64,000 nt of DNA from Candidatus Falkowbacteria bacterium GW2011_GWF2_43_32 (GTDB lineage Bacteria; Patescibacteriota; Patescibacteriia; Patescibacteriales; UBA12465): positions 26,942 through 90,941 of the forward strand of contig LCGL01000003.1 in NCBI GenBank assembly GCA_000999715.1. Reading direction: 5' to 3'. Positions 50,707 to 64,000 of the stretch are shown piece after piece. The notes beneath the pieces were generated by a model. The model was not told the DNA's origin, searched no databases, and saw only the letters and a list, made by a program, of their open reading frames with translations. Within the stretch, counting starts at the first letter, position 1. Each line of letters opens with the position of its first letter. The translations under genes were made by a program, and so were the position numbers.

Positions 50707-51732
50707 TTAATTTTTGACATTCGCGAAATAACTTTTCAAGGGCGCGGCCATTGACGATCCCAGACCGCAAAAACTGGTATCTTCCAAGCTTTGGACCACT
50801 TCATCGAATAATTTGTGATTGAATTGTTTCTGATTCATCAATTCTCGCAGACGATAAGAGCCTTCGCGACAAATCGCGCATTGGCCGCAGCTTTGTTCTT
50901 GATAAAAGCTCAACCAATGTTTAAACAACTTACGCCAATCGGTTCGTTTCTTATCATAAATCATGATGGAGCCGGCTCCTTCCGCCGGAACGGATAATTG
51001 CTCGTCATTGAAAATTTCACCGCTGGCGCCGCCGCCGACTTGGACGAAAAATGCTTTAGCCGGATAATTCCCCGTTTGCCGTAAAATTTCTTCCACGGTC
51101 AAATTGGCCGGCAAATCATAAACTCCGGGGCGCCTGGCCAAACCGGAAATGGTATAAAATCTTTTCCCTTCGTAACGATTCTGCGCCGCCAAACTGACGT
51201 TGTAAAAAGTTTCCGGATTATTGATCAGCGTCGGTCGACCGTATAAGCCTTGTTCGGTAGGATAAGGCGGTTTCCGGCGCGGCTCCACTTTCTTCCCTTC
51301 GATTAAATTCAGCAAAGCGGTCTCTTCGCCGCTGATGTAGGTCAATCTGTCCGGCTTGATGAAAAATTCGGTTTTTTCGCCCAAAGCTTCATATGGCCGG
51401 TCCGCCAAAACGGTTTTTAGGGAAAAACTGTATAACTGATAATATTCGCGATTCAAAAAAATATAAATCTTTTTAATTTTGTCGGCGCCGAAAAACTGTT
51501 CGGCCAAATAAACGCCGTTGATAACGGCGGCGGCGTGATGATGAAAAATATAAGCATCCTTCTTGACGCCCGGCTCTCCTTCCGCGCCGTTGACGATAAT
51601 ATAACCCGGTTTTTTATTTTTGAGAGCCGCCTTCACCGCCGCCCATTTGGCCGCCGTCGGATACGACGCTCCGCCGCGTCCGACCAAGCCGGCCTCGGAA
51701 ATTTTTTTAAGAATATTGGCAGTTTTGGACAT
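50707..51732 (-). CDS. NuoF/HydB-like NAD(P)H-binding flavoprotein subunit (short form)
   Basis: 341 aa; GLVGRGGASYPTAAKW, YISGEETALLNLIEGK..PPYP, EQSCGQCAICREG..SFCGLG (N3-type 4Fe-4S). Confidence 0.85.
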   Translation of the reverse strand: MSKTANILKKISEAGLVGRGGASYPTAAKWAAVKAALKNKKPGYIIVNGAEGEPGVKKDAYIFHHHAAAVINGVYLAEQFFGADKIKKIYIFLNREYYQLYSFSLKTVLADRPYEALGEKTEFFIKPDRLTYISGEETALLNLIEGKKVEPRRKPPYPTEQGLYGRPTLINNPETFYNVSLAAQNRYEGKRFYTISGLARRPGVYDLPANLTVEEILRQTGNYPAKAFFVQVGGGASGEIFNDEQLSVPAEGAGSIMIYDKKRTDWRKLFKHWLSFYQEQSCGQCAICREGSYRLRELMNQKQFNHKLFDEVVQSLEDTSFCGLGSSMAAPLKSYFANVKN

Positions 51733-58529: not shown

Positions 58530-59600
58530 ATGAAGATACTGCTTTATTGCCCGGAAGAGTTTGAATTACTTTTCCCTATCGCCGTCATCTCTAAAAAATT
58601 CATTAATCAGTCATTATTTGTCATCACGATTACGCCGACAGGATTGAGTCATCCGGATTTTTGGTCAAAGGTTTCGCATCGGATAATAACGGCCGTTCAG
58701 CAAGCCGCTTACAGAGACAAGTCCGACAAGAATTCGCTGAACGATCGCGCCATTAAGCAAAGAATAAACGATGCCGATCTTTATCTGCTGGGCATCGATC
58801 CCGAGAATGATCAAGAAGCCGTCGATTTGCTTGATTTTTTCGATCAAAACGAAAATCGCATCAAGCTCTGGATAGACAATCATGATTGGTGGGCCAATGA
58901 ACTGCACTACGTTCATCATAAAATTACCAAGCTGAACAAACGACAAAGCTACTTGGACATATTGAAACGGCGCGGATATCCGGTGCCGAACTCTTGGCTG
59001 GAATTGAACGCCTTAATGACCTCGCCGCACAGGTTAGTTCAGACTAAATCCGATATGAATTTTCTGAAAATTATTCGCCTGCAGAGAGCTTTCAGGGTCA
59101 GCTTGATAATCAGTCGAAATTTAGAAAACAATTATTTCAATCCGATATTTTTGCAGGCGGTGGAAGAATTGATTCACGGTCAGCCTAAGTCAGAAATTGA
59201 CACGCTTTACAATTTGTGCGCCAAAATGCAAAAAATAACCGAGGAAGCCAAAAAGAAATTTACTTGGCGACCGGTACATTTTCCCCTTGCCCTTAAAAAC
59301 GGCATTAAAATCGCTTGTTGCGATTTGGGAAGCACGGAAGACTATTTTGATGCCCCAACCTTGATCGAGTATGCCAACAAACTCTCTCCCAATTGCGTGA
59401 TTTATTTTACGATTCAAGGCAATCCCCATCTGTTCTTAAAAACGGAACATGACGATATTACGGTCCAAGAAATTGCCGAGTTTTATCCGGAATTCCAAAT
59501 CAAAGCGAATAAAATTCAAATCTTGCGTATAATAGACGGAGAATTGATTTTTCATAAAAAGCGCCGCGATCGGGAAAAAAATGAAAACAAAAACAATTAG
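58530..59600 (+). CDS. Hypothetical cytoplasmic protein (orphan, own promoter and terminator)
   Basis: 356 aa; strong SD AAAGGAG; no signal peptide, no motif recognised. Confidence 0.6.
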   Translation: MKILLYCPEEFELLFPIAVISKKFINQSLFVITITPTGLSHPDFWSKVSHRIITAVQQAAYRDKSDKNSLNDRAIKQRINDADLYLLGIDPENDQEAVDLLDFFDQNENRIKLWIDNHDWWANELHYVHHKITKLNKRQSYLDILKRRGYPVPNSWLELNALMTSPHRLVQTKSDMNFLKIIRLQRAFRVSLIISRNLENNYFNPIFLQAVEELIHGQPKSEIDTLYNLCAKMQKITEEAKKKFTWRPVHFPLALKNGIKIACCDLGSTEDYFDAPTLIEYANKLSPNCVIYFTIQGNPHLFLKTEHDDITVQEIAEFYPEFQIKANKIQILRIIDGELIFHKKRRDREKNENKNN

Positions 59601-61789: not shown

Positions 61790-61829
61790 ATATAAATTCC
61801 TTTAAATTTTTAACACTTATCACCATTCA

Positions 61830-62945
61830 TCACCGCGACCGATATATTTCCTTGAGCCAAATCTGATAAAATTCCAAATTGTTCAAACTGGCCAGTCTTT
61901 GTCCCAAGGGATCGTTCAGACGAAAAAGATGATGCAGATAAGCACGCGAAGTTTTTTTCAATTCCGGCAAACTACTGGCGGCGTTAATCGGCCGCCAATC
62001 GGCGGCAAAACGCGCATTATTGATATTGAGACTGTCATACTTCAAGCCCGCCGCGTTTTTTCCGGACGATAACAAAAACAATTTCCCGTGTCGCCCTTCC
62101 CGCGTCGGAATGACGCAATCAAACATATCCCAGCCCATACTCGCACAACGCATAATATCCCGAGGCGTGCCGATGCCAAGCGCAAATCGCCAAGCGTCCG
62201 GCGGAATAAATTCCGCCGTTCGGCGCAAAACTTGATCCAAAAACTTTCCCGCCTTATCGACCGGGCGCGCTCCGAAACCGTAACCGTCAAAACCGATTTT
62301 AACCAGTTCTCGGGTGCAATATTCCCGCAAATCTATTTCCGCTCCGCCCTGGATAACCGCGAAAAGGAGCGGACGTTTTCGGCCGCTTAATTTCCGTTTC
62401 TTTATTTGTTTCAAATATTCGATTTTACATCTTTTCGCCCAGGCGATCGTCCGCGCTACCGCTTTTTCCAAATCGCCGCGGGAAAACTCGTTCGGCGGAC
62501 AATCGTCCAAACAAACCATCATATCCGTTCCCAAAACAAACTGAATTTGAATGGATTTTTCCGGCGTCAATTCTTGCCGGGAACCGTCTAAAGGCGAACG
62601 AAAAATAACTTTGTCGTCAGTAATCTTGCCCGCTCGCGGATTGCGATGAATCAGGGAAAAAACCTGATAACCGCCGGAGTCCGACAAAAGCGGCCCGGAC
62701 CAATCCATAAATTTATGAAGGCCGCCGGCTTTTTTGATCAAATCCAAACCCGGCTGTAAATATAGATGAAAAGTATTGACCACCAAGGCCGCCGTCCCGG
62801 TCCGACGCACCGCTTCATTGTCCGTCAATTTTACAAACCCGCGCGTCGCGTCCGGCATGAAAAATGGCGTCAGTAAAGAACCGTGCGCCGTCCGCAAAAG
62901 ACCGCGACGCGATTTTGATTTATTTGTCCGAGATATTTTTGGCAT
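61830..62945 (-). CDS. tgt: tRNA-guanine transglycosylase (queuine tRNA-ribosyltransferase) homologue lacking the zinc-site ligands
   Basis: 371 aa; TPFFMPDATRG, LLSDSGGYQVFSL, AVIQGG, GWDMFDCVIPTR, SRAYLHHL; CxCxxC..H positions read S, L, L, N. Confidence 0.85.
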   Translation of the reverse strand: MPKISRTNKSKSRRGLLRTAHGSLLTPFFMPDATRGFVKLTDNEAVRRTGTAALVVNTFHLYLQPGLDLIKKAGGLHKFMDWSGPLLSDSGGYQVFSLIHRNPRAGKITDDKVIFRSPLDGSRQELTPEKSIQIQFVLGTDMMVCLDDCPPNEFSRGDLEKAVARTIAWAKRCKIEYLKQIKKRKLSGRKRPLLFAVIQGGAEIDLREYCTRELVKIGFDGYGFGARPVDKAGKFLDQVLRRTAEFIPPDAWRFALGIGTPRDIMRCASMGWDMFDCVIPTREGRHGKLFLLSSGKNAAGLKYDSLNINNARFAADWRPINAASSLPELKKTSRAYLHHLFRLNDPLGQRLASLNNLEFYQIWLKEIYRSR

Positions 62946-62966: not shown

Positions 62967-64000
62967 TTATTGCACCCGACCGGAATTATTCAAACCGGCA
63001 ATTTCGTCATCTTCCAATTTAGTCGTTTTCGGAGCGGTTTTCAACGTGATGACATCTTTGGTTTCCGTATCCGTCGCGCTCACCGTCGAGCCGGGCGATA
63101 ACACCAGAATTTTATCCCGATCCGCCTCGGTCGGCGCAATGCTGATATTAAATTCGGCGTCGGCGCGATACACCGAAACCGGCAACCTCCCTATTTCCCA
63201 AATTACCTGACGGCCGGCGGCGTCATAATACAAACTGCCGACATTGGTATTGTTTTTTTCATCCCAGGAAACATAGCTCGGCAAATTGAAAACGACGCGC
63301 GTATCGGCCAATTCATGCAAATTGTTTTCCACCACCCAATAAACGCGAACGCTGGTTTTTTCTCCGACACGAGGCGGCAACGAACCCGATCCGACCGGCA
63401 AATTGTCATCGTTGAAATAAAGAATGCGCTCGCTTAATTTCAAATCGCTGTTAATGCGGCTGATAATCGTATTGCTTTTATTGTCCTGTCCTTTGATGGC
63501 TTGGTTATTCATGCTGTACTGACCGTAAGAAATCACCTCCAGCTTTTTACCGAAATCGCTGTCCCGGAAAGGCTGTAAATCAAGCCGGAAGTTAATCGCC
63601 CCCTCTTGCCCCGGTTTTATCTCCGCCAATTCCGGAATTTCATTTTTTGTCCAAAGAATCGATTTATTCTGCACTTGTCCCTGCCCTTCATCCTGCAAAG
63701 AACTCCAATTTAAAAATTCACCGCTCAGCGCCGCCATGATCACCACGTCTTTATACGCGCTATCGCCGCGATTGGAATAAGTCAAAGAATAATTTAAGGG
63801 CTGGCCGAAAGTGACGGCGCCGTCGTTTTTAGAACCGTTCAAAAACAAAGTGAGATTCAAATCGCTGGCCACCAATTCCGGAGAAATGGTTTTTTCCCAA
63901 AATACATAGGCTTGACCGTCGTCCAATTTCTTTTCCAACCGCACTTTCACCGCCAAATTATCCGATTTTTGCTTGATACGATAAACGAGCGGCACTTGCT
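62967..64000 (-). CDS. Surface protein with Ig/DUF11-like region, paralogue of 23451-24500; 5' end probably outside window
   Basis: ORF open towards window edge; shares AAGRQVIWEIGRLP motif region with 23451-24500 product. Confidence 0.6.
   Translation of the reverse strand, partial: QVPLVYRIKQKSDNLAVKVRLEKKLDDGQAYVFWEKTISPELVASDLNLTLFLNGSKNDGAVTFGQPLNYSLTYSNRGDSAYKDVVIMAALSGEFLNWSSLQDEGQGQVQNKSILWTKNEIPELAEIKPGQEGAINFRLDLQPFRDSDFGKKLEVISYGQYSMNNQAIKGQDNKSNTIISRINSDLKLSERILYFNDDNLPVGSGSLPPRVGEKTSVRVYWVVENNLHELADTRVVFNLPSYVSWDEKNNTNVGSLYYDAAGRQVIWEIGRLPVSVYRADAEFNISIAPTEADRDKILVLSPGSTVSATDTETKDVITLKTAPKTTKLEDDEIAGLNNSGRVQ

Follow-up and report, generated by a model that had tools for sequence, protein, structure and literature searches.

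A bacterial-type tRNA-guanine transglycosylase predicted to lack the canonical zinc site in Falkowbacteria-like Patescibacteria

Background

Does a bacterial tRNA-guanine transglycosylase (Tgt; TGT for the family) need its structural zinc site? The question is raised by a tgt gene in a 64,000-nucleotide stretch of Candidatus Falkowbacteria bacterium GW2011_GWF2_43_32 (contig LCGL01000003.1, positions 26,942 to 90,941 of the forward strand), which was analyzed as a whole and is referred to here as the window. In the product of this gene, the query of our analysis, the four positions that hold the Cys3His zinc ligands of Zymomonas mobilis TGT carry other residues. We have found that replacement of the zinc site is fixed across a lineage of Falkowbacteria-like Patescibacteria, which belong to the candidate phyla radiation (CPR).

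Results

Its sequence, predicted fold, catalytic residues and the pathway context mark the gene as an orthologue of bacterial Tgt. The Pfam TGT family, PF01702, matched residues 12-367 with an E-value of 4.3e-97 and 325.8 bits against a threshold of 26.3, and TIGR00430, the NCBIfam equivalog for bacterial tRNA guanosine(34) transglycosylase, scored 327.8 bits, slightly over its curated cutoff of 306.75. Residues 8-367 were aligned by phmmer to Z. mobilis TGT (PDB chain 5n6f_A; E 8.5e-73), with a full-length identity of 35-36%. These three matches bear out the full-length TGT homology proposed in a preliminary description of the window, and every motif named there (TPFFMPDATRG, LLSDSGGYQVFSL, MVCLDDC, AVIQGG, GWDMFDCVIPTR and the pocket segment GYGFGARPVDK) was found in the query.

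The query shares with the Tgt enzymes of Z. mobilis, E. coli and T. maritima (EC 2.4.2.29) homology along the full length, a modelled (beta/alpha)8 barrel with a C-terminal subdomain, the catalytic Asp pair, the base-recognition residues including Cys158 and Val233 (Z. mobilis numbering), and the residues of the dimer interface; QueA and QueH partners likewise occur in its lineage. It differs from them by insertions of about four residues after the DSGGYQ helix, about five basic residues before AVIQGG and about ten residues in the hairpin preceding the former zinc site, and by replacement of all zinc ligands (S/L/L/N) together with the co-substitutions N321, E328 and E358. Two features usual in the family, a zinc site and a pocket loop with the canonical Glu235, are missing from it.

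Other family identities were considered and rejected. The archaeal ArcTGT model, TIGR00432, gave the query 75.5 bits, far under its cutoff of 350, and the protein stops at residue 371 with none of the extra C1, C2 and PUA domains. DpdA was set aside because the top model is the bacterial Tgt equivalog and the neighbouring genes are housekeeping genes, with no dpd genes. Against a queuine-type TGT speak the retention of C149 and V229 (no C158V or V233G change) and the weaker match to QTRT1 (E 1e-60, against 1e-72 for bacterial TGT).

As judged from the alignments, the canonical Cys3His zinc site is lost in the query. The CxCxxC motif expected upstream of SRAYLHHL is absent, as the preliminary description had stated: phmmer, MAFFT and the codons agree in placing Ser324, Leu326 and Leu329 at the positions of Cys318, Cys320 and Cys323, and likewise Asn355 at that of His349. 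In the phmmer alignment, 'seCHCavCqkwSRAYIHHL' of Z. mobilis stands over 'aaSSLpeLkktSRAYLHHL' of the query, and 'lmteHNiafyq' over 'laslNNlefyq', with no gap in this region; the alignment is anchored by SRAY(I/L)HHL and by HN/NN-(I/L)-x-F-Y, and the ligand columns of a MAFFT alignment of 229 sequences were identical. A relocated Cys/His cluster was sought in residues 305-371 of the clade and none was conserved. The consensus of this region has no Cys; its conserved His residues are limited to H338 and H339, which zinc-containing forms have as well. Metal binding in the usual way is therefore impossible for this subdomain, as had been suggested, since the canonical site is missing and no substitute Cys/His cluster is conserved; the query Tgt would hold no bound metal of any kind.

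The same replacements recur in relatives. A 99% identical protein from an independent contig (P0001) has the same residues at the ligand positions. The best 120 database homologues, which are 72-99% identical to the query, came from Patescibacteria or Falkowbacteria metagenome-assembled genomes (MAGs). A motif scan placed the ligand positions in 101 of them, the other 19 not fitting the pattern, and found no Cys at any Cys position and a single His at the fourth (P0076). The preliminary description had raised zinc-less TGT as a possible lineage-wide trait, and this was borne out at species level: among 77 Tgt genes from GTDB species representatives (Falkowbacteria-like Patescibacteria), 62 have none of the four ligands, three have His only and 12 have all four. 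The 12 form a tight group, labelled mostly Moranbacteria or Moraniibacteria.

Within the zinc-less clade (66 sequences; barrel identity to the query of 59-83% among members compared), the replacements are strongly conserved, with S324 in 95%, L/I326 in 93%, L329 in 94% and N355 in 92%. Three further positions changed with them. Position 321 is N in 95% of the clade and D in forms with all four ligands (CCCH); position 328 is E in 73%, against L, T or V in CCCH forms; and position 358 is E in 95%, against K in 83% of the Moranbacteria sisters and mostly R in CCCH representatives.

The active site is intact, as the preliminary description had held. The equivalents of D102, S103, G104, G105, Q107, D156, C158, Q203, G229, G261, D280, R286 and R289 are present in 100% of the clade, among them the query residues D276, D89, D147 and Q199 (Asp280, Asp102, Asp156 and Gln203). 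The residues of bacterial preQ1-type specificity are also kept: C149 (Cys158) in 100% and V/I229 (Val233) in 98%. Judging from these residues, the query Tgt would keep its preQ1 activity.

The base pocket has diverged. It carries G230A, A232P and G234D, the conserved E235 is lost, and Y258F and M260L lie elsewhere in the pocket; the corresponding query residues (A226, P228, D230, K231, F254 and L256) depart from the canonical preQ1-pocket set, and the query reads FLG where the canonical sequence is YMG. The same pocket type is found in the zinc-containing Moranbacteria sisters (GARH[IV]D, FLG), and related forms, GG[WR]P[LI]D, occur in many other CCCH-bearing representatives. Since zinc-containing sisters share the pocket type, the pocket change is separate from the zinc loss and older than it. 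The earlier observation that the GARPVD pocket differs from the canonical one therefore stands, and its connection with the zinc loss does not.

The Tgt proteins of Moranbacteria and other CPR bacteria (L058, L061, L065, L069, L071-L075, L077-L079; P0121, P0123) differ from the query in keeping CCCH. They have the same upstream neighbour, a DUF11 protein, and the same derived pocket type (GARH[IV]D, FLG), with Pro or Val in place of Cys158.

The modelling predicts that the former zinc subdomain retains its fold. An AlphaFold2 (AF2) model built from a 59-sequence alignment had a mean predicted local distance difference test (pLDDT) score of 87.5 and a predicted TM score (pTM) of 0.88. Residues 311-360, the former zinc subdomain, reached pLDDT 90-95 (segment blocks of 94, 95, 91 and 91), so structure prediction of the C-terminal subdomain gave a confident TGT-like fold. 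Foldseek superpositions with the TGT structures of Z. mobilis and T. maritima (1efz, 1q2r, 2ash) gave TM scores of 0.86-0.88 and a root-mean-square deviation of 2.4-2.6 Å over about 372 columns; for the Z. mobilis enzyme the values are 0.87 and 2.5 Å.

The equivalents of dimer-interface residues T47, K52, L74, P78 and F92 are present in 100% of the clade, and those of M93, W95, Y330, H333 and E339 in 92%, 83%, 80% (plus 18% F), 94% and 77% (plus 21% D), respectively. This conservation equals that of CCCH-bearing relatives. In the query, K39, Y336, H339 and D345 represent Lys52, Tyr330, His333 and Glu339 and are conserved. Dimerisation may be retained, and the altered quaternary structure put forward in the preliminary description is not supported, with interface residues as conserved as in zinc-containing relatives and a modelled fold that matches Z. 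mobilis TGT.

The genomic context of relatives points to queuosine synthesis. In Falkowbacteria RIFOXYC2_FULL_47_12 (L050; MFGL01000010.1, 417-3216), three genes lie side by side and overlap: queA (PF02547, E 2.5e-100), queH (PF02677, E 5.9e-64) and a tgt of the zinc-less type. This tgt has the same GARPVD pocket, and the pocket is thus compatible with a setting that includes QueA and QueH. QueA and a zinc-less Tgt also co-occur in six long contigs or chromosomes, including those of the two closest relatives, P0002 and L001: an 809,082 bp contig (QueA P0337, Tgt P0116, the same as L009), a 979,672 bp contig (P0440, P0100), a 911,224 bp contig (P0467, P0093), an 895,742 bp contig (P0481, and L001, 78% identical to the query), a 376,996 bp contig (P0492, and P0002, 81% identical to the query) and the complete 977,025 bp chromosome CP066698.1 (P0512, L017). 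The established substrate of QueA is preQ1-tRNA (summarised in PMC5699537). The linkage to QueA and QueH therefore makes preQ1 insertion at G34 by the zinc-less Tgt the most economical reading.

Among 80 tgt loci, the conserved neighbours included only housekeeping genes and no functional partner, except in L050. No preQ1 riboswitch was matched by Rfam in the window, L050 or L081. Fusions among relatives were considered as a route to QueA and rejected, the fusion partners being RNA methyltransferases. In these fusions (P0161, P0131, P0269), the TGT is joined to an N-terminal RsmI-like TP_methylase or to a C-terminal FmrO or Methyltransf_30 domain.

Zinc loss was also found elsewhere in the family. 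We took the nearest 150 cluster representatives (50% identity), ranked by similarity to the zinc-less query, of which 141 are full length. All four ligands are kept in 107 of these, three in four, two in two, one in 14 and none in 14. About 20% of the 141 thus keep at most one ligand, a fraction that is probably inflated by the ranking on a zinc-less query. One case is the Tgt of cultured Devosia (P0277/P0282; WP_212658164.1, WP_046171630.1), which has S, N, C and I at the ligand positions and so keeps one of four, and which is 62% identical to Z. mobilis TGT with a canonical pocket. Loss of Cys3His with retention of the catalytic residues is common to the Devosia and query enzymes; they differ in the replacement pattern (S-N-C/I in Devosia) and in the pocket.

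A zinc-free signature, I-N-x-x-S-x-[LIFM]-x-E-L-[RK] ... L-N-N-L-E-F-Y, is found on at least three barrel lineages. Besides that of the query, these include the uncultured lineages P0129/P0201, with a canonical GGLSVGE/YMG pocket, and P0200/P0248/P0169, with a GGVAQG/HLG pocket, both of which keep the catalytic residues. Across the three lineages the zinc-free modules are 49-66% identical (ligand columns excluded) and the barrels 35-48%. In the Moranbacteria sisters, its closest relatives by barrel, the pattern is reversed: the barrel is 62-69% identical to that of the query and the C-terminal module 30-45%. The P0129-type gene shares its synteny (DUF4012, DUF11-protein, tgt) with the query clade. 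The observation on the modules also takes in the locus L084:5017-6180.

A neighbour-joining tree of the barrels had internal branches of at most 0.02 and gave no order for the zinc-less groups with respect to the CCCH clade of Moranbacteria. Because these branches are too short, no claim of a single loss is made. It is possible, though we think it rather less likely than not, that the zinc-free C-terminal module is a discrete, reusable solution that arose by repeated convergence or through CPR lineages exchanging the 3' part of the gene. If this is true, the module could free queuosine modification from the zinc supply or from Zn-thiolate oxidation.

The coordinates of the gene and of the residues discussed above are collected in Table 1.

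Table 1. Positions of the tgt gene and of its principal residues and segments in the window (Zm, Z. mobilis TGT)
Feature	Position	Strand	Basis or remark
tgt CDS, bacterial-type tRNA-guanine(34) transglycosylase	61830..62945	-	371 aa; PF01702, TIGR00430, Z. mobilis TGT, AF2 model
Asp89 = Zm Asp102 (DSGGYQ motif)	62679..62681	-	100% in clade
Asp147 = Zm Asp156 (base recognition), followed by Cys149 = Zm Cys158	62505..62507	-	both 100% in clade
Base-pocket segment GYGFGARPVDK, residues 221-231 (Zm GYAVGGLAVGE)	62253..62285	-	alignment
Asp276 = Zm Asp280 (catalytic nucleophile, DMFDCV motif)	62118..62120	-	100% conserved; codon read directly
Asn321-Glu328, part of zinc-free signature I-N-x-x-S-x-L-x-E-L	61962..61985	-	clade conservation
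Former zinc-site segment, residues 324-355, SSLPELKKTSRAYLHHLFRLNDPLGQRLASLN	61881..61976	-	ungapped to Zm C318-H349
Ser324 (codon AGT), Zm Cys318 position	61974..61976	-	alignments, codon reading
Leu326 (codon TTG), Zm Cys320 position	61968..61970	-	alignments, codon reading
Leu329 (codon TTG), Zm Cys323 position	61959..61961	-	alignments, codon reading
Asn355 (codon AAC), Zm His349 position	61881..61883	-	alignments, codon reading
Glu358, clade-specific co-substitution (Lys/Arg in zinc-containing relatives)	61872..61874	-	clade conservation

The surroundings of tgt are conserved in more than 70 species, in the order DUF11 wall protein, tgt, (pyk, eno), metallophosphoesterase, rlmN and superoxide dismutase (SOD). 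In 74 of the 81 loci, the place directly upstream of tgt is taken by a gene for a DUF11/CLIPPER-like, probably cell-surface protein of about 660 aa (window 62967-63995, reverse strand). It is frequently preceded by a gene for a DUF4012 protein of about 850 aa, and the linkage is very stable. At the junction between tgt and the membrane metallophosphoesterase gene (61790-61829), pyruvate kinase and enolase are absent in the window and in L009 and present in most relatives, where they were called by reading representative sequences and not by a Pfam scan. Between the SOD gene and rlmN, the opposite strand carries a 356-aa open reading frame (ORF) for which Pfam gave no match (58530-59600, forward strand). 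This slot holds different or no genes in related genomes and is a variable insertion point in the conserved synteny.

Other features of the window lie further from tgt. Between 786 and 12549 there are ten ORFs (233-471 aa, both strands) without a Pfam match at E<=1e-4, with a GC content of 0.39-0.40 against 0.42-0.47 elsewhere in the window; this run could be a set of lineage-specific surface proteins or an island. A NuoF-like protein with Complex1_51K FMN-binding and NADH 4Fe-4S domains is encoded at 50707-51732 (reverse strand) in this small-genome organism. Neither a tRNA gene (ARAGORN) nor an Rfam family at the gathering threshold was found in the 64 kb.

Discussion

We consider that the query is probably an ordinary bacterial Tgt of Falkowbacteria-like Patescibacteria that functions independently of zinc. 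As a homodimer it would exchange guanine-34 for preQ1 in the tRNAs with GUN anticodons (Asp, Asn, His and Tyr), and QueA and QueH would then turn preQ1-tRNA into queuosine. The small C-terminal subdomain would no longer be tied together by a structural Zn(Cys3His) centre. Instead, the inner two Cys residues, replaced by Leu or Ile (Leu326 and Leu329 in the query), may pack into the metal cavity and form a small hydrophobic core there, while the outer Cys and the His, replaced by Ser and Asn, may act as hydrogen-bonding caps. A fixed set of changes nearby, D321N, x328E and K/R358E, goes with these replacements; perhaps a Lys or Arg balancing the negative [ZnCys3His] centre is no longer needed. 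No new enzyme activity or system is implied.

Several points weigh against this interpretation. The zinc-binding domain has been named one of the 'two hallmarks of TGTs' (PMC6165067). The confidence of the AF2 model is no proof that the predicted subdomain would be stable without metal, and the equivalent of the dimer hot-spot Trp326 is Thr332 in the query and Y or H in the clade. The preQ1 pocket is altered, with Glu235 unconserved and Y258F and M260L fixed in the clade. Moreover, A232P would remove the amide NH of the Leu231/Ala232 peptide switch, so that base recognition may differ in detail. Chong and colleagues are said to have found in 1995 that mutations of the zinc ligands cripple E. 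coli Tgt.

The pathway evidence has its own weak points. Pfam scans of about 41 of the approximately 55 ORFs of the window found no queA, queH, queG, queC-F, yhhQ or queT, and tblastn with an E. coli QueA sequence, which alone covered the remaining ORFs, had no match in the window, L050 giving its sole match. Queuosine or preQ genes, for which the preliminary description had proposed a check of the genome, are thus absent from the window scans, and QueA and QueH are found in relatives (both in the L050 operon, QueA in the six co-occurrences), from which the pathway of the window's own genome would have to be taken. The six pairings of QueA and Tgt rest on equal length in bp and equal source, and not on both genes being drawn from one record.

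Four other explanations were weighed against a working zinc-independent Tgt. The first is a changed substrate or target, in which the enzyme would insert another 7-deazaguanine (preQ0, queuine or some other salvaged base) or have a nucleic-acid target different from tRNA position 34, both of which the preliminary description had raised. The pocket speaks for it (GARPVD/FLG against GGLAVGE/YMG, with Glu235 lost and Pro at A232), as do the general tendency of CPR bacteria to be salvagers and the finding of no preQ1 biosynthesis gene in Pfam scans of part of the window's ORFs. Both forms of this explanation are opposed by the retained Cys158 and Val233, with neither of the eukaryote-like or queuine-type changes C158V and V233G, and by the linkage to enzymes that work on preQ1-tRNA and oQ-tRNA, seen in the queA-queH-tgt operon of L050 and in the presence of QueA in six long contigs. 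The pocket variant is also found in zinc-containing sisters, and is hence unrelated to the zinc loss, while the top model is the bacterial Tgt equivalog and not ArcTGT, and no dpd-like DNA-modification genes lie nearby. We regard a changed substrate or target as unlikely.

Secondly, the site may be altered rather than lost, with Ser324, Asn321, Asn355, Glu328 and Glu358 binding a hard cation such as Mg2+, Ca2+ or Na+. The co-occurrence and strong conservation of N321, S324, E328, N355 and E358 in every lineage with the zinc-free signature speak for such a site. Two of the four ligand positions, however, are Leu or Ile and unable to ligate metal, and E328 is conserved in only 73% of the clade, which makes this explanation very unlikely.

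Thirdly, the gene could be a decaying or non-catalytic relic, either a pseudoenzyme or a gene in the course of being lost, given that a hallmark structural site has gone and that CPR genomes are generally reductive. This is highly improbable, as more than 60 species have an intact ORF with the catalytic residues at 100%, conservation of the replacement residues themselves reaches 92-95%, the predicted fold scores high in confidence, the synteny is kept and the gene co-occurs with QueA and QueH.

Finally, the idea that a sequencing or assembly error, or a misalignment, masks real ligands has a negligible chance of being right and is refuted: phmmer and MAFFT give one ungapped alignment with invariant SRAYLHHL and NNLEFY anchors, neither aligner restores the ligands, and the same residues in the 99% identical protein on an independent contig, in dozens of independently assembled genomes and in the 62 of 77 species-level relatives exclude sequencing error.

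We therefore return to a functional, zinc-independent Tgt, for which partial precedents exist. According to a 2016 review (PMC5699537), two of the four ligands are missing from phage 9g DpdA. This protein resembles the query in having an incomplete zinc site with kept catalytic residues, and differs in being a DNA-modifying paralogue with an ArcTGT-like pocket. By analogy, phage 9g DpdA and the Devosia Tgt may serve as precedents for activity without a full zinc site. In the literature searched, phage 9g DpdA was the one exception, and we found no description of a bacterial Tgt without the zinc site, nor of queuosine metabolism in CPR bacteria, Patescibacteria or Saccharibacteria.

Zinc starvation makes queuosine synthesis fail (PMC9894224). 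Judging from the reference list of PMC5699537 and from PMC9894224, queuosine and preQ0 synthesis can be uncoupled from zinc supply through FolE2 and QueD2, replacements that need little or no zinc. These are separate paralogues with a catalytic metal, unlike the query, which is a single orthologue minus a structural metal site.

Conclusions

The replacement of Cys3His by a small hydrophobic and polar cluster offers a natural recipe that would be useful in protein engineering, and Devosia Tgt provides an experimentally tractable Tgt with a deficient zinc site. Inhibitor programmes against Shigella Tgt aim at the dimer interface formed by this subdomain, and a zinc-less Tgt is relevant both to drug design against that enzyme and to metal limitation. 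CPR bacteria carry tgt-queA-queH, the last three steps of queuosine synthesis, on which the literature searched is silent. The hallmark zinc site has been held necessary for dimerisation and tRNA binding. A large, conserved and apparently functional zinc-less lineage challenges that need, as do independent cases such as cultured Devosia.

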